A program made the translations under genes and the position numbers. From an uncultured Myxococcales bacterium (GTDB lineage: Bacteria; Myxococcota; UBA4151): DNA of 11,350 nucleotides. How positions within the stretch are numbered: position 1 is the first letter of the stretch; every line of letters starts with the position of its first letter. The notes below the pieces were generated by a model. The model had not been told where the DNA came from and did not search any database. It was given only the letters and a program-made list of their open reading frames with translations. This document shows positions 1-11,350 of the stretch, one piece after another. Where the stretch lies: the NCBI GenBank assembly GCA_964013405.1, contig CAXGWI010000115.1:1-11350 (forward strand), in the 5' to 3' direction.

Positions 1-790
1 TGTCCTCGGCATTGTTGTTGCCATCGTCGCAGCCCTCGCCTGGGCCGATGATGCCGTCCCCACAGATGTTGGCGCTGCAGTCGGACTTGCAGGCATCTTG
101 GTCCACTTGGTTGCCGTCATCACAGGCTTCGTAACCGGGATCTTCAGCGCTTAGGTTTTGTCGCAGGATCCCATCGCCGCAGCGGGCCTCCCGGCAGTTG
201 TTTAAACAGGCATCTTCGTCCACCCGGTTGCCATCGTCGCAAGCTTCGCCCTCTTGTACGATACCGTCTCCACAGCCAGGCAATCGACACGCATTGCTGC
301 AGCCATCACTATCCACCTCGTTGCCATCGTCACAATCCTCGACGCCGAGGCGGATCAAGCCGTCACCGCAGCGGGCTTCGAGGCAGCCGGCGACGCAGGC
401 ATCGTCGTCGGCTGCGTTGCCGTCATCACAGGCTTCGAAGCCGGGCTCGCCTTCGGTGAGGTCGCTGCGGACCACACCATCGCCACAGCGCGCGTTGCGG
501 CAGGTGCTCAGGCAGACGTCGTGCTCATCGCTGTTGCCATCGTCGCATTCCTCATAGTTCGATGCCTGAGGGTCGTCGCTTTGGCGGGTGATCCCATCGC
601 CGCATTGGGGCAGTTTGCAGCCGTCGGTGCAATCGTCGGTGGCGACCTCATTGCCGTCATCGCATTCCTCATCCACCTCCAACTCACCATTGCCGCATTC
701 GCCGGGGACGTCGCGCACGACCACCTGCTCACCAGGACAGCCCATGAGGCCCAGGGCGATCAGTAGGAAACCGGAAGAGAACCACTTCAT
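1..790 (-). CDS. Cys-rich repeat lipoprotein (DUF4215 / Myxococcus cysteine-rich repeat family), 5' part only; runs off the left edge
   Basis: Not in the ORF track because there is no stop in the window; translated by hand from ATG at 790. It reads MKWFSSGFLLIALGLMGC|PGEQVVVRDVPGECGNGELEVDEECDDGNEVATDDCTDGCKLPQ-CGDGITRQSDDPQASNYEECDDGN... and stays open to position 2 (263 codons). Lipobox LMGC with Cys18, six complete CG(D/N)G..CDDGN..D.C...C repeats plus a partial seventh, and SD-like GAGGTGG just upstream. Confidence 0.93.
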   Translation of the reverse strand, partial: MKWFSSGFLLIALGLMGCPGEQVVVRDVPGECGNGELEVDEECDDGNEVATDDCTDGCKLPQCGDGITRQSDDPQASNYEECDDGNSDEHDVCLSTCRNARCGDGVVRSDLTEGEPGFEACDDGNAADDDACVAGCLEARCGDGLIRLGVEDCDDGNEVDSDGCSNACRLPGCGDGIVQEGEACDDGNRVDEDACLNNCREARCGDGILRQNLSAEDPGYEACDDGNQVDQDACKSDCSANICGDGIIGPGEGCDDGNNNAED

Positions 791-793
791 AAA

Positions 794-800
794 CCACCTC
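794..800 (-). promoter_or_regulatory. Ribosome-binding site of the 1..790 lipoprotein gene
   Basis: Minus strand reads GAGGTGG-TTT-ATG; the GAGGT core lies 5 nt before the start codon. Confidence 0.65.
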
Positions 801-936
801 AAAGCGTCGGGGCACGCCGCCACCGTGCATGCCATTATTTCCTGTCTTCCAACAAGATGGCCCGACCATGGTGATGAGTTTGTTGCGCATTCGATGGATG
901 GGGGGCGGGCCACGGCCTTCCCAGGGACCTAGAAGG

Positions 937-1007: not shown

Positions 1008-1460
1008 CTAGCGGAATTCGTCGAGACGAAGGCGCCGGGGGCGGTGGACCAGGAACATGGTGACGATGGTGATTCCGCTGAGGCCCACCACATACTGGGT
1101 CTCACCGGACAGCAGGGTCAGGATCAAGCCAAAGAGCGCACAGGATTCAGCCACCGCCCAGGTGATGATCAAACCGTTGACTGGTAGGGGAAAGGCTTTC
1201 TCCATCAAGACTTCTGGTGGCTCCTCCTGCGCCTTCAACTGTTTCGGCTGGGTGAGCCATCGCCGGATGAACACACTGAGGGCCAGGTTGAACAGAGCCA
1301 TCCCTGTGAGCACGATGACGAGAATCGACTCGATGGGCTCCTCCGCGGGCTCTGCGATGACGAAACCGACGATGACGTAGAAGAGTTGGGACAGGGTAAG
1401 CGCGCCCCAAAGAATGTAGGGCAACATGAGGGGGTTCGCGTTCGGCTGCGTTTCGTTCAT
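1008..1460 (-). CDS. Hypothetical integral membrane protein, 4 predicted TM helices (150 aa)
   Basis: Part of ORF 1008..1529. The preferred start is ATG at 1460 (MNETQPNANPLMLPYILWGALTLSQLFYVIVGFVI...), with AGGA upstream. Hydrophobic segments are YILWGALTLSQLFYVIVGFVI, ILVIVLTGMALFNLALSVFI, LIITWAVAESCALFGLILTLL and YVVGLSGITIVTMFLV, followed by a basic tail HRPRRLR. Confidence 0.8.
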   Translation of the reverse strand: MNETQPNANPLMLPYILWGALTLSQLFYVIVGFVIAEPAEEPIESILVIVLTGMALFNLALSVFIRRWLTQPKQLKAQEEPPEVLMEKAFPLPVNGLIITWAVAESCALFGLILTLLSGETQYVVGLSGITIVTMFLVHRPRRLRLDEFR

Positions 1461-1596
1461 CGCACTGGATCCTGTCCGCCGGGACGTTGCGGCAAAAGCC
1501 GATGGATTGGCAAGAGGCTCCTCTGCCATCTTGTCAGACTTTGCCGGCCGCTGTTAGCAGCCTGTTCGAAATCACAGTTTGCCCGGGAGTCATGCG
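1461..1596. promoter_or_regulatory. Divergent intergenic or promoter region containing a nested imperfect palindrome
   Basis: Lies between divergent starts at 1460 (-) and 1597 (+). CGGCAAA (1490-1496) / TTTGCCG (1540-1546) and TGGCAAGAGG / CCTCTGCCA (1508-1528) share a centre at about 1518. A -35-like TTGTCA is at 1531-1536 with only a weak -10. SD-like GGGAG is at 1585-1589. Confidence 0.5.
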
Positions 1597-4500
1597 ATGA
1601 TCTTCGCACTCACTAGCCTCGTGTTCAGTCTGAATGCCGCTGAACTCCAGCCGCAACTCCAAGAGGAAATTGAAAGGGCGCAAACATGGTATGCGTGGGG
1701 GCGAGACGCAAACAATCCCCAGAGTTTTTTCAACCGCTCTCGAGATCACTACGCTCGCGTTTGTGACCGCATCCTCCGCAACGCGGGGGTCTCGGCCGCT
1801 GAGGTGGAACGCATCAAGTCGAAGGCCAGCCAAGAGGACAATCCAGGCCCGAGCCACTGCGAAGTTGCGGAACAACGGGCCGTTGCCTCCCTGAGCGGGA
1901 TCGCAGCGGTGGCGCGCTTGGGTTTTGAGCAGAGCGAATGGCGCATCGACAACGCCTGGGACAGCTTTCGAAGTCGCTATCCCGGCGTTTGGTGGTTGAT
2001 CGGCGAAGATCCCACGCTGGAGTTGGTCGATGACAAGTACATGAACGCCTTTGGGCAGGCTTGGGACAAGCTGGCTGTGGGCATTCCCCTGGTTAAAGTC
2101 CCCCGACTTCCCTTCATCGTGCGCTGTCATGGTCGTCACAGTATCTGTGGCAACTACCGAGATGAGCTTCACGGTGCCACCGCTGCCAATCCCAGGCTAC
2201 ACGGCATTCCCGATGACCGAGGCCGCCAACTCCTGGGCGCAGATTGGGACCGTCTGATCGCAAGCGACGACCCTGAGACGGGGCTTGTGGTGCGACTGGG
2301 GCAGGCCATGGACGCGCCGGCTGTGATGGTTGTCGATGTGCGTGTCGCCGACGAATTCGGACTCCCATCCTCGTCGAGCGACGAAGCGCAGTACTGCGAT
2401 TTGGAGGATGGCGAGGTTCCCGACGATTGTCTGCATGTGGCTCGCACCTACATGACCTACCAAGTCACGAAGATGGCCGGTGGCAAGCCGATGGCCGGTG
2501 GCGAAGCCCATGGCGTCGCTGTCGATACGACCACTCGGACTCAAGTCCGCATGCTCTGGGGCTTGTTTTGGCTCTTGGTGGCCCTAGGCTTCGGCCTGGC
2601 CGGCGGTCTACGAGCGAAAAAGCGTAGGGGGCAGGAGAAAACGATCTATGCCTTCCAGTTAATCGCTGCAGTTGCCGCTTTTTTAGTCGGTGGATTCGTT
2701 GGGTGGATCGCCGGCGATGTCAGTGGCAATTTTGCCCCCGACTGGGCTGAGTTAGGGGCGGTTGCGGTTCCAGGGGCTCTTGAAGGGTTACCCCGTCCGG
2801 GTGTGCTCCTTTGGCCGATTGTTCATGGGCTCGTGGTTATGGTGGGCCCCGCGCTGCTCTGTGCCTTTGTCGCCATTCGCTATCTGCCGGAATGGGCCAT
2901 GGCCTGGAACACTCGCATGGATACAGATGTCATCGTGCCTGCGGCCCAAGCCGGTGCGGTAGCGACCCTCTTCGCACCTCTCTTGGCTTATGGGGTGATC
3001 GAGCCGGCATCGACAGCCTGGGGCCTTCCTTGGGAGTTACAGGTCGCGGGCTCCATCGCTATTTCCGCGGTGCTGACGAGCGTTTGGCTGAGTCGCTCGA
3101 TGATGACTTATCTGGACGTCGAGAACGACACCACCACCCTTGAGATCAGCATGCTGGTTCTCGGTCTGGTTTTGATGGCTCTCTTGCTCCCCCTCGGCTT
3201 GTTCCAGGGCAGAACCCCAGAGAGCGAGGGCTGGCACGGCCTGGTGAGCCTCTTCGTGTCTCTCGTCGCGATCGCTGGCCTTTTGGGAGTTTTCAGCAAA
3301 AAGCCACAGGCTGAGGCTGCCACGGACGAAGATGCCGGGTTGGCCGGTGGCGGTAGCGAGGGCCCGACCTTCAGTTTGAACCGGCCCCTTTTCTACAGCG
3401 ATTTACAGCACGAGGTGTTGGGGGATTCGCAACGAAGCATCACCGTTGCGGAGGAACTGGCCTTCTTGAAGCAGGAAGGCGGACTTCAAGTTTTGGTCTT
3501 AGAGTCGGTCAGTGGTGTGGGCAAGAGTCGGACGGCTGATTACCTGCGTAACGAATGGGAGCAGGGGGAGCATTGGAAGTCCGGCTACGGCACCGCCCAA
3601 GAGGGAGATGAACCCTATGCGCTGATCCAGACCGTTCTCGATGGTGTGGGGCTGACTGGGGATCTCTCGTCCCAAGAAGCCCAAATGGCTCGGAGCCAGC
3701 AGTTGGCCGAGGCCAGTGGCGAACTGATCAATATCATTCCCGGTGGGGGCCTGCTCACCTCACTCACTGGAGGCGGCGCTGAAGAGGGGAAGAGTCAGGA
3801 GCGCATTATCCACGATATCGTTCGCAAGTTGAATGATATTGGCGAGGGCGAAAAAGGTGAGAACATCCTTCTCGTCTTTGACGATGTGGAGCAGGCCGAT
3901 GAGAGCAGTTGGGCCGTCCTGAAGGGCTTGCTCGCGAAGCTAAAAGATGAAGACCGTCAAGGGGACAGAGCGCTGGCCGTGGTGCTGTGCGTCGAGAAGT
4001 CGGAGCCGACACCTGGATCGGCGGAGGCCTCGACCCAAACGATTGACACGCTGCTCAAGGAGGCTTTTGAGCGCCCGAAGGAAGAAGCGAAAATAGCAGA
4101 CGAGCGTGTCCTGAAGGTCAAGATTCCGAAACTAAATGTGGAGGAGGTGGGTCACCTTTTGGCCAATGCGGGGGTCGACCTCGGCCCAAGTCAGCGAGAA
4201 GCGATTTTGGACTTGCTGCACGAGCGCTCGAGGGAGGGCAAAGCATTCTACATCCTTGAGATCGTCCGCACACTCAAGGAGCTGGGCCATATCGTTGCCA
4301 ACCCAGACGAGGCCAACCGGTACGTCTTCGAGGATGTATCGGCTGCGGAAATCGACAAGGCGGTGCCTAAGAATATCTACGATGGCGTGATTCAGCGGCT
4401 CAAGGCCCTCGACCCTGAGGAGCGTTTAGTGCTCCACTGTGCGTCGATTTGTGGGCGCTCATTCTCTGTCACCAACATCGCTCGGGGGCTCAGTCGGCCC

Positions 4501-7419
4501 CGTCTCGAAGTGCTGCGCATCCTGCAGCAGATCGAGGACGAGCACGGTTTCATCGAGGATGTGGTCGAGGACGATGACCGGTTCCGCTTCCTCAACACGA
4601 TCACGATTGGGGCCATGGAGAAGTGGCTGGAGAAGACCGAGGCACGGGGGGGACATGGCCGCGAGCTGGTCAAAGAGATGCACCGTGAGGTGGCCCGCAA
4701 GATGATCGAGGCCCGAGACAAGGATCTTCAAGTCAAGAATGAGAGTGATGTTCCCCTCGGCCGGATCGCGTTCCATTGCCAGCTCGCAGGTCCGAGCATG
4801 TTGGGGCTCTTTCGAGAGTACACGGCCCAGGCGGCGATCGCTGCGGCTCGGCAGGGAGCCTGGCCCGAGGTCTTTCGGGGTGTAGGCACGTTGGGCACGA
4901 GCTTGAACTGGACAACCTCCCTATTAGAATCTGCAAAAGGTGCCGAGGATGCTGCCGACAAAATAGGTGAGGAGTTGTCGGCTACGGAGCCAGCGAGCCT
5001 GCAGCACCGGCAATGGGGGGATCTGGGCCCGGCCCTTCGCTCCAAGCTCGATCTCGCTTGGGCCCGGGCCTGTCATGGAACCGGCGGCCAAGAGAACCGG
5101 GATCGGGCCCGTCGACTGCTGAAGCCCATTCTTGATGCCGCTGCGGGGGGACCTGCGGGGAGCCCGACGGGGGCCGGCTACGCCTCGTCGACCGAGACCG
5201 AGGCGACACCGGAAGGGAAGCGGCAGTATCCCGACCTTTATCCGGCCTTGGCCCTCTATCTTGAGGTGACCTACGAAGAAGAACAACTCAGTGAGCTCGA
5301 GGCCTTAATCGAAGAGACCCAGGAGTGGCTCTCGAAAGAGGATTGGGGTGACGAACTCTGGCAACTCGCCTGTCGGTTCTATCATGACATGGCCATGCTC
5401 TTTACAGCGGTGCGGGACGACCGGGCAAAGCGTATGTACCAGAAGGCGCATTCGGCCGGGTCCGATGATGGAGCCAAAGCCTCCCAAGAGTTCGATCTGC
5501 GTACGAACTTCCTGGAAAAGTTGCTGCGTTTAGAAAAAGCCTTGGAGGCGCTCCCCTCCGATCGGCGGGGGGACCGGCGCCGGGATCGCCGCCGGGACCT
5601 TTTGCGAGCGAAGATGCTGGCAGCCCAGGCCGACCAGGCCTATCAACTGGCGAAGGTCGCCGGCGATCCGGCCGGGCCCGTCGAGGAGCAGCGCTACAAC
5701 GAGCGCATGGAGAAAGCGCTCGGGCTACTTGGTCAGCACCAAGATCATATCGCCGTGGCCCAACTCTACATGGATCAGGCGGAGCGATTTCTTGAACTCA
5801 GCGACTCGGAGATCGCTCAACGTTATTTGGAGCAGGCCGAGAAAACCCTCACCGAGATCGGCTCAGAAAGCGGCAAGAGCCGGCTTAAGGCTCTGCAGGG
5901 ACGCTGCAAATGGGCCCAGGGAGGCGATGATGCCAAGCTGCGGGCAGAGGCTTTCGAACTCTCGATGGAGGCAAGCAACATTGCGGATGACAAGAGCCGT
6001 GAGCGTGATCAGGTCTTGGCCGGCGCGCAAATGATCGAGTTTATGGAAGAGGACTCCGAGCGTATCGAGGAGGTTAACAAACTCTTTGAATGGTGTGCCA
6101 AGGGCAAAGAGCCAGGCTGCTTGGTGGATAGCGAGGTGTGGAAGGAGTTCCACGAGGGCGACCCCATTCGCACCAGGCTGTACGACTTACTTCGACCTCT
6201 CGATCAGACGGCGCCGGGCTGGGCCTGGATGCTGGGGCTGAAGCTGGCCCAGGCCCAAGCCTGTCAGGGGCGGCGAGGTCAGGAGAATCGTGACCTGGCC
6301 CGGGAATGGCTCTCTGGAGACAATGGCGTCCTGACCGTATTGGAGGCATCGGCACACTGGGAAGACGCCCCCTTTGATCTGTTGGAGCCGGTCAGCCTTT
6401 ATTGCTCCATCACCTACGCGGAGAAGCAGGCCAGTGATCTCGATGAGCTCATCGAGAAGACCGAAGCCTGGCTCGCGGATCCGGCCTGGGGAACACAATC
6501 CGACGGGATGGCGCGGATCGTGACCCGCTTCTATTTGTTGATGGCCAGCGCCTTTCGGGATGAATGGTCGAGCGACCGCCCCCGCAGCGAGATCCTCAGC
6601 GAGCAAATCGAAGGGCTCGCCGAGCTCGAGAAGGACCTCGAGCAAGCGAAGGGGCGTGACCATTATCGGGCCCGTTATCGGGCCCGCATGATCCGGGAGC
6701 GGGCCTGGGCCGAAGTGCGTTTGGCTGAGGACGCGGCGGCGACTGCAGAGGTCTTTAATGGATTGATGGAAGAGAGCCGGGGGCTTAGTGACAACGACGA
6801 GCATCCCGATCTATTGGGCCAGGCTGCGAACTTCTCCATGCGGGGGGACTTTGCCCTCTCCTATGGGAAGAACCATGACGAGGCCCGCAGGCACTTTCGC
6901 AAGACCAGGGAGTTTGCGGACAAAGCCCGCTACGAGGATTCTCGCAGTAAGTTGTATAATCGCCAGGCCCGCTGCGCCTGGTATGACGCCCGTGGCCTCC
7001 AGCGGGGCACCGCCTTCCACCATCAGGTCAACCAGGCCTTTCGCTTAGCCTGGCAAGCCTGGGAGCAGGCGGTCGAGGCGGACCGAGAGCGGGATCAAAT
7101 CCACGCATCCATCAACCTCATGGAGTTTTGGGTGACGCCGCCTGAGTCCCTGGAGCGCGAGGACGTTGTTGCCTATCAGCAGGAACTTCTGGAGCGGGTG
7201 CTGCCATCCAAGACGGAGGAAAGGACCTTGGCTGCGGCGATGGACAAGATGGGCCAAGGGCTCAACGATTCTGACCTATGGAAAGAGATCTATCCCAAGG
7301 ATATCCTACGGAGCCAGGTGCGCAGTTGTCTCGACCATCTGAAGTCGGCTCAAGTGACATGGCCGTGGATCGATGCCGTCGACTCCCTGTTGAAGGAAGT
7401 CGGTGAGCCGGAGGCTTAA
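1597..7419 (+). CDS. Large multi-pass membrane STAND-type (AAA_16 / MalT-like) P-loop NTPase: signal peptide, ectodomain, ~7 TM, NTPase, winged helix, duplicated TPR-like region (~1940 aa)
   Basis: ORF 1579..7419; ATG at 1597 is preferred because GGGAG lies 7 nt upstream and it gives a signal-like MIFALTSLVFSLNA|AEL. There are seven hydrophobic segments at about 2545-3297. Walker A is SVSGVGKS (3505-3528) and Walker B is ILLVFDD-VEQADESS (from 3865). The segments VPKNIYDGVIQRLKALDPEERLVLHCASICGRSF, MHREVA, IAFHCQLAG and YTAQAAIAAARQGAWPEV follow the pattern of adenylate-cyclase/LuxR-associated STAND ATPases. The C-terminus is Ala/Leu/Glu-rich and helical. Confidence 0.88.
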   Translation: MIFALTSLVFSLNAAELQPQLQEEIERAQTWYAWGRDANNPQSFFNRSRDHYARVCDRILRNAGVSAAEVERIKSKASQEDNPGPSHCEVAEQRAVASLSGIAAVARLGFEQSEWRIDNAWDSFRSRYPGVWWLIGEDPTLELVDDKYMNAFGQAWDKLAVGIPLVKVPRLPFIVRCHGRHSICGNYRDELHGATAANPRLHGIPDDRGRQLLGADWDRLIASDDPETGLVVRLGQAMDAPAVMVVDVRVADEFGLPSSSSDEAQYCDLEDGEVPDDCLHVARTYMTYQVTKMAGGKPMAGGEAHGVAVDTTTRTQVRMLWGLFWLLVALGFGLAGGLRAKKRRGQEKTIYAFQLIAAVAAFLVGGFVGWIAGDVSGNFAPDWAELGAVAVPGALEGLPRPGVLLWPIVHGLVVMVGPALLCAFVAIRYLPEWAMAWNTRMDTDVIVPAAQAGAVATLFAPLLAYGVIEPASTAWGLPWELQVAGSIAISAVLTSVWLSRSMMTYLDVENDTTTLEISMLVLGLVLMALLLPLGLFQGRTPESEGWHGLVSLFVSLVAIAGLLGVFSKKPQAEAATDEDAGLAGGGSEGPTFSLNRPLFYSDLQHEVLGDSQRSITVAEELAFLKQEGGLQVLVLESVSGVGKSRTADYLRNEWEQGEHWKSGYGTAQEGDEPYALIQTVLDGVGLTGDLSSQEAQMARSQQLAEASGELINIIPGGGLLTSLTGGGAEEGKSQERIIHDIVRKLNDIGEGEKGENILLVFDDVEQADESSWAVLKGLLAKLKDEDRQGDRALAVVLCVEKSEPTPGSAEASTQTIDTLLKEAFERPKEEAKIADERVLKVKIPKLNVEEVGHLLANAGVDLGPSQREAILDLLHERSREGKAFYILEIVRTLKELGHIVANPDEANRYVFEDVSAAEIDKAVPKNIYDGVIQRLKALDPEERLVLHCASICGRSFSVTNIARGLSRPRLEVLRILQQIEDEHGFIEDVVEDDDRFRFLNTITIGAMEKWLEKTEARGGHGRELVKEMHREVARKMIEARDKDLQVKNESDVPLGRIAFHCQLAGPSMLGLFREYTAQAAIAAARQGAWPEVFRGVGTLGTSLNWTTSLLESAKGAEDAADKIGEELSATEPASLQHRQWGDLGPALRSKLDLAWARACHGTGGQENRDRARRLLKPILDAAAGGPAGSPTGAGYASSTETEATPEGKRQYPDLYPALALYLEVTYEEEQLSELEALIEETQEWLSKEDWGDELWQLACRFYHDMAMLFTAVRDDRAKRMYQKAHSAGSDDGAKASQEFDLRTNFLEKLLRLEKALEALPSDRRGDRRRDRRRDLLRAKMLAAQADQAYQLAKVAGDPAGPVEEQRYNERMEKALGLLGQHQDHIAVAQLYMDQAERFLELSDSEIAQRYLEQAEKTLTEIGSESGKSRLKALQGRCKWAQGGDDAKLRAEAFELSMEASNIADDKSRERDQVLAGAQMIEFMEEDSERIEEVNKLFEWCAKGKEPGCLVDSEVWKEFHEGDPIRTRLYDLLRPLDQTAPGWAWMLGLKLAQAQACQGRRGQENRDLAREWLSGDNGVLTVLEASAHWEDAPFDLLEPVSLYCSITYAEKQASDLDELIEKTEAWLADPAWGTQSDGMARIVTRFYLLMASAFRDEWSSDRPRSEILSEQIEGLAELEKDLEQAKGRDHYRARYRARMIRERAWAEVRLAEDAAATAEVFNGLMEESRGLSDNDEHPDLLGQAANFSMRGDFALSYGKNHDEARRHFRKTREFADKARYEDSRSKLYNRQARCAWYDARGLQRGTAFHHQVNQAFRLAWQAWEQAVEADRERDQIHASINLMEFWVTPPESLEREDVVAYQQELLERVLPSKTEERTLAAAMDKMGQGLNDSDLWKEIYPKDILRSQVRSCLDHLKSAQVTWPWIDAVDSLLKEVGEPEA
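5041..7416 (+). repeat. Internal tandem duplication of a ~380-397 aa helical (TPR-like) module: copy 1 ~5041-6228, copy 2 ~6229-7416
   Basis: Collinear matches: LAWARACHGTGGQENRDRAR / LAQAQACQGRRGQENRDLAR (Cys codons at 5071 and 6262); TYEEEQLSELEALIEETQEWL / TYAEKQASDLDELIEKTEAWL; RFYHDMA / RFYLLMA; KSRLKALQGRCKW / RSKLYNRQARCAW; RERDQVLAGAQMIEF / RERDQIHASINLMEF; LVDSEVWKEF..WAW / LNDSDLWKEI..WPW. Confidence 0.9.
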
Positions 7420-8486
7420 GAACTGCTCTCCGGGAGTTGGCGGACATAGACATCCTGTTGGGGGAAGGGGATCTCGATGTTCGCTTCACCGAAGCGCTTG
7501 TAGACAGCGCAGTTGAGTTGATCGAGGATCGGGCCTCGTTCGCCGGGGTCTTCGATCCAGCACAGCAATTCGAAGTCCAATGAGGAGTCGCCGAAGCTGC
7601 GAAACCGAACCTGAGGTTGGTGCTTCTCCCCGTCGACCTGTTCGTGGTCAGCAGCCACTTGCATCAGAATCTCCCGCACTTGATCGATGTCTGAGCCATA
7701 GGCGACGCCCACCGCAACCCGAAGGCGATGATGGGTCTCTAGCCCCCCGGAAAGATTGGTGACGGTGCTCGCACCCACCACGGAGTTGGGCATCGAGATC
7801 TCGACCCCATCCCGGGTGATGAGTCGTGTCGATCGCAGACCGATGCGCTCTACCCGTCCTTGTTGGCCATCGTCGAGGACGATCCAGTCCCCCTTTTGAT
7901 AGGGCTTGTCTGCGATGATGAAGACACCGGCAAACAAATTGGAGAGGGTGTCCCGGGCGGCGAAGCCGACAGCGATACCGAGCACGCCGGCACTGGCGAG
8001 CCAGCCGGTGGCGTCGATCCCCCAGACACTGATGATCAGGTATGCAGCGCCGGCGACCACCAGCAACTTCACCAAGTTGTCAAAGAGCGGCAGCGTGGTG
8101 GCCGTCATCAAATGGAAGCGCTCTTCCTCGTGGGATGCAGCCTCCACCAACATGCGGCTGGCACTAAAGAGGAAGCGGCTGACGATGATGATGAGCACAC
8201 TGATCAACAAGTTGCTGATAAAGTCCTGCAGCCCCTGATTGGCTCGGGTGCGCAGCACGGCCATCAGGATACCGCCGATGACGATGCATTTGACGATTAC
8301 CGGCTCCAGCAACGCGACGAGCTTATCGTCGAGGTCCGTGCCCTCGGTGGAAGCGGCCCAGCGAACCAGCGTCTTTGCCACCAGCCAACTGATGAGTTTG
8401 GCCGCCAACAGGGAGCCGACGATGATGATGGCGAAACTTGCGTAGGGATTGGCCCAGATCTGCTGGACCACGGGAGGAATGTTCAC
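7416..8486 (-). CDS. mscS: Small-conductance mechanosensitive ion channel family protein (MscS family, N-terminally extended), 356 aa
   Basis: GTG start with AGGAG SD at 8492-8496. Pore-helix-like LASAGVLGIAVGFAARDTLSNLFAGVFIIADKPYQKGDWI, beta domain GRVERIGLRSTRLITRDGVEISMPN, and C-terminal VGVAYGSD, PQVRFRSFGDSSLDFELLCW and IEIPFPQQDV are all MscS signatures. Confidence 0.95.
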   Translation of the reverse strand: MNIPPVVQQIWANPYASFAIIIVGSLLAAKLISWLVAKTLVRWAASTEGTDLDDKLVALLEPVIVKCIVIGGILMAVLRTRANQGLQDFISNLLISVLIIIVSRFLFSASRMLVEAASHEEERFHLMTATTLPLFDNLVKLLVVAGAAYLIISVWGIDATGWLASAGVLGIAVGFAARDTLSNLFAGVFIIADKPYQKGDWIVLDDGQQGRVERIGLRSTRLITRDGVEISMPNSVVGASTVTNLSGGLETHHRLRVAVGVAYGSDIDQVREILMQVAADHEQVDGEKHQPQVRFRSFGDSSLDFELLCWIEDPGERGPILDQLNCAVYKRFGEANIEIPFPQQDVYVRQLPESSS

Positions 8487-8498
8487 GGACGCTCCTAA

Positions 8499-11162
8499 TT
8501 ATCGAACGAAGACGTTGACCGCCGTTAAGTTGCCCCAGTGATCGCCTTGTGACCAGACCTCGTTGTCGCCGTGTTCGCTGCGGGTATAGCCGACTTGGAG
8601 GGTCTCCGCGTCGCCGTTGCACCCGTTCCGGATCGCGATGCGACCGGGCTCGGTATCACCATTCTCGTCACCAGCGAGAACGAGGTGGTTGTAGCTGTCG
8701 TGCCTGGGACTCCCACTGAGATAGGTAATGGACTGACTGCAAGCCCGCCCACCATCGACCATGGATTGGTTGATGAGAGAACGGGCCGTTCGGTTGGCGA
8801 GGAAGTTGTCGCTGGTTCGAACACCGTAGCGCGTTTCATCGACCCGATTCCGTACCATCATGTTGTTGGCCGCCAAGCGTCCATAGGCCGGTGAGACGTG
8901 GTCCTGCCCATGGCCCGGGTCGTTGACTCGAACGTCCTGAACACCGCCATAGCTGCTACGGCCCCAACCCTCACCACCGCTGAAGAAGTTGATGGCTCCG
9001 TCGTTGCGAGAGACCCGGAGGATGAGCGTCCAGCCGCCCCCGTCGGTATCCATCTCACAGTAGGCCTGGAAGGCATCGGCCGTGTCGCCTCCTTCCGGAT
9101 CGATCCAATAGATACCGCTGGTTGCGCCGGGCCGGGCCTCGATCAACTGCAGGCAATGTTGCGCTGGCGCGTTTTGGTTTTGGCCCAGGTTATGGCTGCA
9201 ATCGTTGGTACAGGCGTCGTCCTCGTCGTTGTTCCCGTCGTCACAGTCTTCGACACCGTCCTGGACCAGCCCATCGCCGCAGGCGGCCGCTTCGCAGGTG
9301 TTGAGGCAGGCATCGGTCTCGACCTCATTACCATCGTCGCAGGCCTCGACGCCGGCGTGAACCAGCCCATCACCACAACGAGCTGCGTTGCAATCATTGA
9401 GACAGGCATCGGTTTCAGCGGCGTTCCCATCATCACAGGCTTCCACACCCTCGTGAACCCGTTCGTCGCCGCAGCGAGCCACCGCACAATCGTTGAGACA
9501 GGCATCGGTCTCAATGGCGTTCCCGTCATCGCAAGCCTCCACACCGACTTGGATCTGCCCATCGCCACAGCGGGCGACGTTACAATCACTCAGGCAGGCA
9601 TCGGTATCCACCGCGTTGCCGTCGTCACAGGCTTCCACGCCAAGTTGGACGGCACCATCGCCGCAGCGTGCTTCCACACAGTCGTTGAGGCAGCCATCGC
9701 TTTGGACCCGGTTCCCATCATCACAGGCTTCGCCCGCTTGAACCACGCCATCACCGCAGCGGGGGCTCTGGCAGTTGTTGCGGCAGTCATCGTCGTCCAC
9801 GTCATTGCCATCATCGCAGCCCTCACCGGGGGCTAAAAATCCGTCACCACAGCGAGCGACTCGACAGTCCGGGGTGCAGTTGTCGCCGGCGACCTCGTTG
9901 CCGTCATCACATTCTTCGACGCCTACGTGCACGATGGCATCGCCGCAGCGGGCCTCGGCGCAAAAGGTGGTGCAGGCATCGTGGTCGTTGTTGTTGCCGT
10001 CGTCGCAGGCTTCGTCATTTTGGACGATGGCATCACCGCAGCGGGCCCGGAGACAGGCGTTGCTGCAGTCGTCATCGTCGATGCGGTTGCCGTCATCGCA
10101 TTCTTCCGCACCGGCTCGGACGATCTGGTCACCACATTGGGCGAGACGACATGTATTGGTGCAACCGTTGTCATTCACACCATCGCCATCGTCGCAGTCC
10201 TCGTAGCGCTCATCTTCCGGTTGGAGATCCTGGCGAAGGACGCCATCGCCGCACCGGGCTTCGGCGCAGCTGGACAGACACCCGTCATCCTCCATGAGAT
10301 TGCCGTCGTCGCAAACTTCGCCGGCCTGCAAGATGCCGTCGCCGCATTCGGCTGGTCGGCAGTCGTGACAACTGTCCTCGGCGACCTCGTTGCCGTCGTC
10401 ACAGCCTTCACCGGGCCCCTGGATACCATCACCACAGAAGTTGGGTTGGCAATCGCTTTTGCAGGCATCTGTGTCGTTGTCGTTGCCGTCATCGCAGGCC
10501 TCATAACCGGGCTCATCCTCGCTCAGTCCCCGGCGCAACACGCCATCGCCACAGCGCGCTTCTCGACAGTCGTTTCTGCAGGCATCGGTCTCCGCCTGAT
10601 TGCCATCGTCGCATTCTTCACCGGGCTGAACGAGCCCATCGCCACAGCCGGGCAATTGGCAGGCGTTGGTACATTCGTCTTCATCACTGTCGTTCCCATC
10701 GTCGCAGGCTTCGATCCCCACTTGGAGCAAGCCGTCACCGCATTCGGCCGGGATGCAGCCCGCAACACAGGCATCTTCATCGTTGTCGTTGCCGTCATCA
10801 CAGCGCTCGAAGCCTAACTCGCCCTCACCCAGGTCGCTGCGGACCACGCCGTCACCGCAGCGGGCGAGCATGCAGTTGTTGCGGCAGGCGTCCTGATCGA
10901 CGGTGTTGCCATCATCGCATTGCTCGGCGCCCTCAGCTTGAGGATCGAGATCGGTTCGGGTGATGCTGTCGCCACAGCGGGCCAAGGCGCAGCCATCGGT
11001 ACAGGCGTCTCCTGGCTCTTTGTTGCCGTCGTCGCAGGTCTCATCGGCCTCAATCTCCCCGTTGCCGCATTCACTGGGGATGTCGCGGACGACGACCTGC
11101 TCGCCGGGACAGGCGGTCATCAGAAAGAGAAAAGCGAGAAAGGGCGTTTGTGCTTTCAACAT
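8499..11162 (-). CDS. Cys-rich repeat (DUF4215 / Myxococcus cysteine-rich repeat) lipoprotein with C-terminal fibrinogen-like YCDxxxxGGGW domain, 887 aa
   Basis: The likely start is ATG at 11162 (MLKAQTPFLAFLFLMTAC|PGEQVVVRD, lipobox Cys18), 4 nt after the upstream gene's stop and matching the paralogue at 790. There are 19 CG(D/N)..CDDG..C...C repeats. The head domain contains APAQHCLQL..SGIYWIDP..FQAYCEMDTDGGGWTLI (motif at 9027-9062) and ends in VNVFVR*. Confidence 0.93.
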   Translation of the reverse strand: MLKAQTPFLAFLFLMTACPGEQVVVRDIPSECGNGEIEADETCDDGNKEPGDACTDGCALARCGDSITRTDLDPQAEGAEQCDDGNTVDQDACRNNCMLARCGDGVVRSDLGEGELGFERCDDGNDNDEDACVAGCIPAECGDGLLQVGIEACDDGNDSDEDECTNACQLPGCGDGLVQPGEECDDGNQAETDACRNDCREARCGDGVLRRGLSEDEPGYEACDDGNDNDTDACKSDCQPNFCGDGIQGPGEGCDDGNEVAEDSCHDCRPAECGDGILQAGEVCDDGNLMEDDGCLSSCAEARCGDGVLRQDLQPEDERYEDCDDGDGVNDNGCTNTCRLAQCGDQIVRAGAEECDDGNRIDDDDCSNACLRARCGDAIVQNDEACDDGNNNDHDACTTFCAEARCGDAIVHVGVEECDDGNEVAGDNCTPDCRVARCGDGFLAPGEGCDDGNDVDDDDCRNNCQSPRCGDGVVQAGEACDDGNRVQSDGCLNDCVEARCGDGAVQLGVEACDDGNAVDTDACLSDCNVARCGDGQIQVGVEACDDGNAIETDACLNDCAVARCGDERVHEGVEACDDGNAAETDACLNDCNAARCGDGLVHAGVEACDDGNEVETDACLNTCEAAACGDGLVQDGVEDCDDGNNDEDDACTNDCSHNLGQNQNAPAQHCLQLIEARPGATSGIYWIDPEGGDTADAFQAYCEMDTDGGGWTLILRVSRNDGAINFFSGGEGWGRSSYGGVQDVRVNDPGHGQDHVSPAYGRLAANNMMVRNRVDETRYGVRTSDNFLANRTARSLINQSMVDGGRACSQSITYLSGSPRHDSYNHLVLAGDENGDTEPGRIAIRNGCNGDAETLQVGYTRSEHGDNEVWSQGDHWGNLTAVNVFVR
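9198..11069 (-). repeat. Coding tandem array of 19 four-Cys acidic repeats (30-32 aa short units and 39 aa long units)
   Basis: Counted from the translation. Long units with an R-x-x-L insertion are repeats 2, 3, 6 and 9. The 11-mer CAGGCATCGGT recurs with an exact 96-nt period at 9307, 9403, 9499 and 9595. Confidence 0.92.
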
Positions 11163-11166
11163 CGAA

Positions 11167-11350
11167 TTACCGCACCCAAAGGTTAAGGCTATAGGCTTGG
11201 CTGTTGGGACCGGCATCGTTGCCACCGAAATCGACCCGGGTGTTACAACCACTGCAGTTGCTACCAAACTGGGCGTCGTTCGCCTCCGTGAGGCCGATGC
11301 CATGATCGGCCCGCTCGCAGTTGTCACCGCCGCCACCGATCATCATGACC
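11167..11350 (-). CDS. C-terminal 60 aa of an upstream gene, probably ending in a fibrinogen-like or related extracellular domain (partial)
   Basis: Manual translation from 11349 gives VMMIGGGGDNCERADHGIGLTEANDAQFGSNCSGCNTRVDFGGNDAGPNSQAYSLNLWVR*, with TAA at 11169-11167. The end NLWVR* parallels NVFVR* of the next gene, and the stop lies 4 nt before that gene's ATG. Confidence 0.8.
   Translation of the reverse strand, partial: VMMIGGGGDNCERADHGIGLTEANDAQFGSNCSGCNTRVDFGGNDAGPNSQAYSLNLWVR

Follow-up and report, generated by a model that had tools for sequence, protein, structure and literature searches.

A seven-helix membrane STAND protein family, half of it without the ATP-binding lysine, as a likely receptor or scaffold

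The STAND/NLR proteins characterised so far sense in the cytoplasm and carry an ADP/ATP switch. Two non-defence STANDs with TPR-type sensors, MalT and PH0952, are soluble and keep the ADP-binding His; for MalT, control comes from MalK at the membrane. Some bNACHTs with multiple transmembrane (TM) regions, which are C-terminal or inserted, were predicted to sense intramembrane or periplasmic signals, according to the available part of the source (bioRxiv 2022.07.19.500537). The gene described here occupies positions 1597-7419 of contig CAXGWI010000115.1 from an uncultured Myxococcales bacterium (assembly GCA_964013405.1; the window, that is, the whole stretch analysed, 11,350 nucleotides), and its product combines a predicted signal peptide, an ectodomain, seven TM helices, a STAND module and a doubled TPR module in one chain. 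The STAND plus TPR-like sensor is common to this protein and the Avs/bNACHT proteins with TM regions, but the STAND type is different and the seven TM helices are N-terminal, after the signal peptide and ectodomain, a combination absent from the available part of the bNACHT source. Where MalT carries a DNA-binding output domain, the window protein is instead fused to a membrane part.

The nearest nucleoside triphosphatase (NTPase) relatives are the SWACOS-type STANDs (class 3 adenylate cyclase-STAND-TPR and Ser/Thr kinase-STAND proteins), which align over the nucleotide-binding domain (NBD), helical domain and winged helix; 40 of the 44 nearest outside matches were of the cyclase or kinase kind, as the original prediction, made from the letters of the window, had supposed. 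The names SWACOS, GxP, GRxxE and sensor-1 are used here as what we take to be the customary labels. In contrast to SWACOS proteins, the window family has the signal peptide, ectodomain and seven TM helices in the cyclase/kinase slot and is without the GRxxE pattern, the winged-helix His and often the Walker A Lys; its fused layout was kept after switch residues were lost. A fused adenylate cyclase or Ser/Thr kinase was found neither in the window protein by Pfam nor among the best 25 of the 77 families matched by 40 alignment members. Since half of the family is without the ATP-binding Lys, it is likely a membrane receptor or scaffold, and not a classic immune switch. No paper on this architecture was found in a literature with little subscription coverage, and the family may be undescribed where searchable; the supplements of PMC13581612, the available part of which sorts 589 STAND clades with defence and non-defence clades interspersed, may contain it.

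One gene and its predicted membrane-spanning half

The open reading frame (ORF) is uninterrupted over 1940 codons with its sole stop at the end, GGGAG stands 7 bases upstream of its ATG, and the first 13 residues are identical, with the same start, in a syntenic orthologue from a same-genus genome (60% identical over aa 1-1939). That an assembly artefact fused two genes, one for a membrane protein and one for a STAND, has a negligible chance of being true: the source assembly is fragmented (244 contigs) and no single metagenome contig covers the whole gene, but the idea is refuted by the full-length orthologue in the second genome and by 28 divergent relatives, also full length, in which the domain order is identical, and the original view of one gene holds. 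Pieces 95-100% alike were found along the gene in marine metagenomes (four runs, four studies), 24 of the 40 listed differences being silent (87 more differences lie outside this list), and the G+C content is 0.60 versus 0.61 for the genome. At window positions 6054-6058, one contig of the X1 run (depth 2.7) lacks one base and has one extra base, at a distance of four bases, a frame-restoring pair that may be an error. The parts of the gene are the following:

1597..7419, + strand: whole gene, 1940 aa, solitary, with one divergent and one convergent neighbour
1597..1638, + strand: predicted signal-peptide-like start, aa 1-14, hydrophobic, without a basic n-region
1645..1959, + strand: ectodomain part 1, aa 17-121, predicted helical bundle with MIT/TPR-like arrangement
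2044..2520, + strand: ectodomain part 2, aa 150-308, predicted alpha/beta domain of LpoB-like fold
2125..2148, + strand: Cys177/Cys184 pair, both or none across the family
2530..3294, + strand: seven membrane helices, aa 312-566, predicted N-out/C-in
3364..4938, + strand: STAND module (NBD, helical domain, winged helix, arm), aa 590-1114
3505..3528, + strand: Walker A, aa 637-644, Lys643 present
3868..3885, + strand: Walker B, aa 758-763, two aspartates present
4588..4596, + strand: winged-helix F-x-H site, here F-L-N, His replaced by Asn
5032..6087, + strand: helical/TPR module copy 1, aa 1146-1497
6232..7146, + strand: helical/TPR module copy 2, aa 1546-1850, seen by sequence self-similarity

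A profile built from four rows and covering the N-terminal 570 residues, searched against 1.84 billion representatives, gave 50 matches, 28 of them full length (1244-1450 aa), the 22 shorter fragments being left out of the alignment. The resulting 30 rows (the window protein, P0001 and the 28 full-length relatives) underlie the family counts given below. The leader of the window protein itself is short and uncharged, and the signal peptide is predicted mainly from family comparison: ahead of the first conserved helix, a hydrophobic 8-mer occurs in 28 of the 30 rows versus 4 of 40 cytoplasmic controls. Seven hydrophobic peaks lie at aa 320-566, where the model shows seven long helices, and every segment is hydrophobic in 26-30 rows. 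In all 30 rows, which are related sequences, the three inferred inside loops are richer in Lys and Arg than the three outside loops (on average 8.2 in 54 inside-loop residues versus 0.9 in 36 outside-loop residues). The signal peptide, the odd TM count and the N-out/C-in topology by the positive-inside rule, all proposed originally, remain the predicted arrangement.

Cys177 and Cys184 occur together in 15 rows and singly in none and, because they are present as a pair or not at all, probably form a periplasmic disulfide. LpoB is a lipoprotein that binds PBP1b. Its C-terminal domain and GNA1162 are 10% identical to the window ectodomain, with no Pfam link found, and here the LpoB-like domain is instead fused to an inner-membrane bundle. 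In the predicted model, the ectodomain and the membrane bundle form one rigid unit (predicted local distance difference test score, pLDDT, 92.8; predicted template modelling score, pTM, 0.90). The conserved membrane residues are concentrated in outer loop 2 and helices 3-4, the best-kept stretch between the two orthologues (84% versus 66% for the NTPase domain), and the conserved motifs are W406-P-x-x-H410-G, G417-P418, P-x-A-Q451-A-G453 and P532-x-G (W406 in 30/30 rows, P399 and G453 in 28/30, H410 and Q451 in 20/30). At the same time, the seven helix cores contain no conserved acidic residue and one histidine (20/30).

For the membrane part, one search with the whole 565-aa model ranked APH-1, a CPBP-superfamily homologue, as the closest fold; the comparison of the seven helices with the GPCR/rhodopsin 7TM fold relies on this whole-model search as well. 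The markers of the CPBP/PrsW/APH-1 superfamily are an EExxR/QExxR motif and two intramembrane histidines (PMC6588880). The fold match and the one conserved intramembrane histidine would agree with an active protease of CPBP/PrsW type under the control of the STAND module, but the second histidine is absent, as is EExxR/QExxR from the helix cores (a stray pattern occurs in 1/30 rows), and hhalign against PrsW and YhfC, with templates of only 8 and 5 sequences, gave a probability of 0.3, below shuffled controls. Because the glutamates are missing, this explanation is largely refuted and must be called highly improbable. Compared with APH-1, TMEM147 and the CPBP proteins (Abi, PrsW), the window family is without catalytic motifs and, with these small templates, showed no sequence-profile link, and the likeness of its model to APH-1 may be one of shared topology only; if it is homology, a bacterial non-protease branch would be added to the APH-1 fold. 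The available parts of two further sources state that APH-1 and TMEM147 build a peptide-holding funnel opening to the lumen (PMC7505659) and that Abx1, without its protease residues, regulates a kinase (PMC3578759).

The STAND module, its lost switch residues and the readings of function

By its predicted fold, which matches NOD structures (a MalT entry, NRC2, PH0952 and Apaf-1), the window protein is a STAND: a P-loop NBD that has both Walker motifs, A and B, is followed by a helical domain, winged helix and arm, and then by superstructure-forming C-terminal repeats. The STAND-like NTPase of the original prediction is likewise supported by the single Pfam match of the 1940-aa protein (AAA_16, aa 627-782, with an E value of 1e-9 and a score that passes the cut-off); searches of curated NCBIfam and PDB sequences gave no match. 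AAA_16 was recognised at E 0.01 in 22 of the 28 full-length relatives, the other six all being without the Walker A Lys, and among the 40 alignment members AAA_16 was matched by 26 and KAP by 2. In KAP NTPases, TM helices are inserted inside the P-loop domain; here, all seven helices lie before Walker A and none within the NBD model, and a KAP assignment was rejected.

In the STAND tree, the family forms a single clade (support 1.0) apart from 40 controls, which are adenylate-cyclase and kinase STANDs, mostly close kin of one another. The winged-helix His, which in NODs at rest is bound to the beta-phosphate of ADP according to the available text of PMC10427625, is present in 0/30 family rows versus 40/40 controls, the GRxxE pattern in 0/30 versus 38/40, the sensor-1 Arg in 9/30 versus 40/40 and the Walker A Lys in 15/30 versus 40/40. 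At the GxP site the window protein reads G-K-A; some relatives keep the GxP motif. The window protein is a STAND by fold, of cyclase/kinase-linked descent, that fails nucleotide-contact features. Fourteen lysine-less members, which retain all other parts, form one clade (support 99 in the N-terminal tree, 0.997 in the STAND tree), and the lysine-less P0010 is a second loss or the sister of this clade, depending on the tree. The rows with the Walker A Lys are exactly the 15 with the outside Cys pair; this co-occurrence is suggestive of coupling across the membrane, but it reflects one or two events only. Members with and without the Lys allow a direct test of the role of the nucleotide.

The two C-terminal copies align with each other at E 1e-27 (score 261 versus 46±7 in 300 shuffles). 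Pfam gave no TPR match on the window protein, and the repeats are identified as TPRs because the family profile of the module matches the Pins/LGN TPR (E 1e-10) and the predicted fold resembles the peptide-binding PlcR, LGN, Rap and NprR, in accordance with the helical repeats noted originally. The window protein, its orthologue and its paralogue have two copies and the 28 relatives one; the doubling, also announced by the original prediction, stands for the window protein, and judged by these sequences it belongs to this genus and not to the family.

Our tentatively preferred reading is an inner-membrane outside-in receptor, the STAND-TPR part of which would provide a scaffold for docking and not a strict ADP/ATP switch. 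The ligand, a protein or peptide of the periplasm, would be bound by the LpoB-like domain on the seven-helix bundle, the signal would cross the membrane to the cytoplasmic STAND-TPR part, and this part would recruit a cytoplasmic partner, the nucleotide being dispensable in half of the family. We infer the outside-in direction; the TPR groove would presumably recruit an output partner encoded elsewhere, and the doubled module would presumably offer two docking sites in the window protein. Receptor or scaffold is favoured because the off-state His was lost family-wide and the Walker A Lys in half of the family while the ectodomain and membrane motifs persist, and because the membrane cores are without a conserved acidic residue. 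The evidence therefore leans to the second of the two mechanisms offered originally, inside-out and outside-in; if it holds, NLR-type modules can form the cytoplasmic half of a receptor at the cell surface. Precedents for this reading are the peptide-holding APH-1/TMEM147 funnel, Abx1 and MalT. A more specific but doubtful proposal is a one-chain receptor class in which an LpoB-like cap and an APH-1-like funnel would read a periplasmic peptide and signal to the fused NLR-type module, with nucleotide-switch and pseudo-ATPase lineages and joint loss of the outside disulfide and the P-loop Lys; if true, a STAND protein would be run outside-in and the gamma-secretase scaffold fold would be used in bacterial signalling.

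A serious though rather unlikely competitor of the receptor reading is inside-out, Avs-like defence, in which the TPR modules would bind a cytoplasmic phage or invader protein, the STANDs would assemble into oligomers, and the membrane bundles or ectodomains brought together in this way would harm the membrane or set off a response of the envelope, making an envelope-spanning unit an immune effector. The order effector-STAND-TPR is canonical for such proteins, and the arm and the TPR module, doubled here, change fastest between the orthologues (55-56% identity versus 66-84% elsewhere). The spread is patchy (2/401 genomes of the phylum, 2/6 of the class), and two family copies each occur in genomes G000 and G001 and in the organism of loci L021/L022. 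Moreover, degenerate Walker motifs in KpAvs8 (PMC13581612) and inactive STANDs in predicted conflict systems (PMC7159879) are described in the available parts of these sources. The helix cores, however, lack the polar residues that a pore would need; nor would a pore need an exported domain of 300 aa that has conserved residues of its own, and the family-wide loss of the off-state His would fit poorly with a lethal effector. PADLOC 2023, which predates newer Avs families, gave no match for the window protein or for seven of eight relatives, and matched the eighth via the P-loop only; no family member was found in the viral contigs searched. The expectation that no effector would be recognisable was borne out by Pfam, NCBIfam and PADLOC, and with the spread given above and no annotated family, the architecture is not a common one.

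Gene neighbourhoods and distribution

The genes adjoining the STAND gene, and the run that contains its paralogue, are located as follows:

1008..1529, - strand: divergent neighbour, 173-aa multi-pass membrane protein, 67 bases from the STAND gene
7416..8486, - strand: convergent neighbour, MscS-family mechanosensitive channel (mscS), stop codons overlapping
L029:2-14425 and L030:3-9276 (G000:C92, G001:C122): paralogue run

The 173-aa protein has no Pfam, NCBIfam or PADLOC family, its DNA is conserved beside the orthologue, and no functional link of the STAND gene to it or to mscS was seen at the locus. All three genes sit inside a run of DUF4215 cysteine-repeat genes. Long arrays of such paralogous, lipoprotein-like genes were noted at window positions 2-913 and 8499-11336 and on L011 and L012; one window copy terminates in a fibrinogen-like domain, and about nine DUF4215-type ORFs lie within 31 kb around the orthologue.

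Comparison of eight separate family contexts, several of them short loci, revealed no common neighbour family. In 2 of the 8, a NACHT-type gene with weak Avs matches is adjacent, which may speak for Avs-like defence. These NACHT/nSTAND-like genes lie at L021:235-5144 and L020:14655-18932, their weak matches being to Avs1b and Avs2; a WD40 protein is encoded downstream on L021.

In both G000 and G001, the paralogue comes last in a run of closely spaced genes that all point the same way. A signal-peptide vWA-like protein (959 aa) is followed there by a Tubulin_2 protein (1168 aa); a second tubulin-like protein (964 aa) has a FlgD Ig insert, and a 2045-aa membrane helicase-like protein, whose DEAD-like and ZorE-like matches are weak, precedes two small genes. 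Together with the NTPase decay and with APH-1 being a non-catalytic scaffold subunit, this run would suit a constitutive element that anchors an envelope machine in the membrane or scaffolds its assembly, bridging periplasmic and cytoplasmic partners without a signalling step. We regard this as improbable: the run accompanies the paralogue only, in 1 of the 8 contexts, while the window gene is solitary, and a structural part would be expected to keep its partners close and to be less patchy. The run also resembles the two-tubulin/vWA neighbourhoods of GTPase-centred conflict systems, with no GTPase or GAP1 gene among its scanned genes. In the iSTAND ternary systems (Kaur et al. 2020), as far as the available text of PMC7159879 goes, a catalytically inactive STAND belongs to membrane-proximal predicted conflict systems defined by MoxR and vWA partner genes, whereas half of the window family keeps Walker A and B; neither partner gene adjoins the window gene, and the paralogue run has the vWA-like gene, without MoxR among the scanned genes.

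The family is rare and known only from uncultured organisms. Four of its six titled loci are from Myxococcota and two are labelled Enterobacterales; the latter contigs, L023 and L024, have G+C contents of 64% and 58%, and since the family is otherwise myxobacterial, mis-binning or transfer is possible. A transposase fragment lies upstream of the family member on L024. In both G000 and G001, the N-terminal part of the paralogue runs off a contig and its probable C-terminal part begins another, the two presumably being one gene; an Endonuclease I family gene runs towards the probable end of the paralogue in each of the two genomes (L013:3875-4789, L031:1852-2679). Additionally, two STAND-type ORFs, G000:C88:5827-8508 and G000:C85:3865-7518, match only the NTPase part of the family profile.
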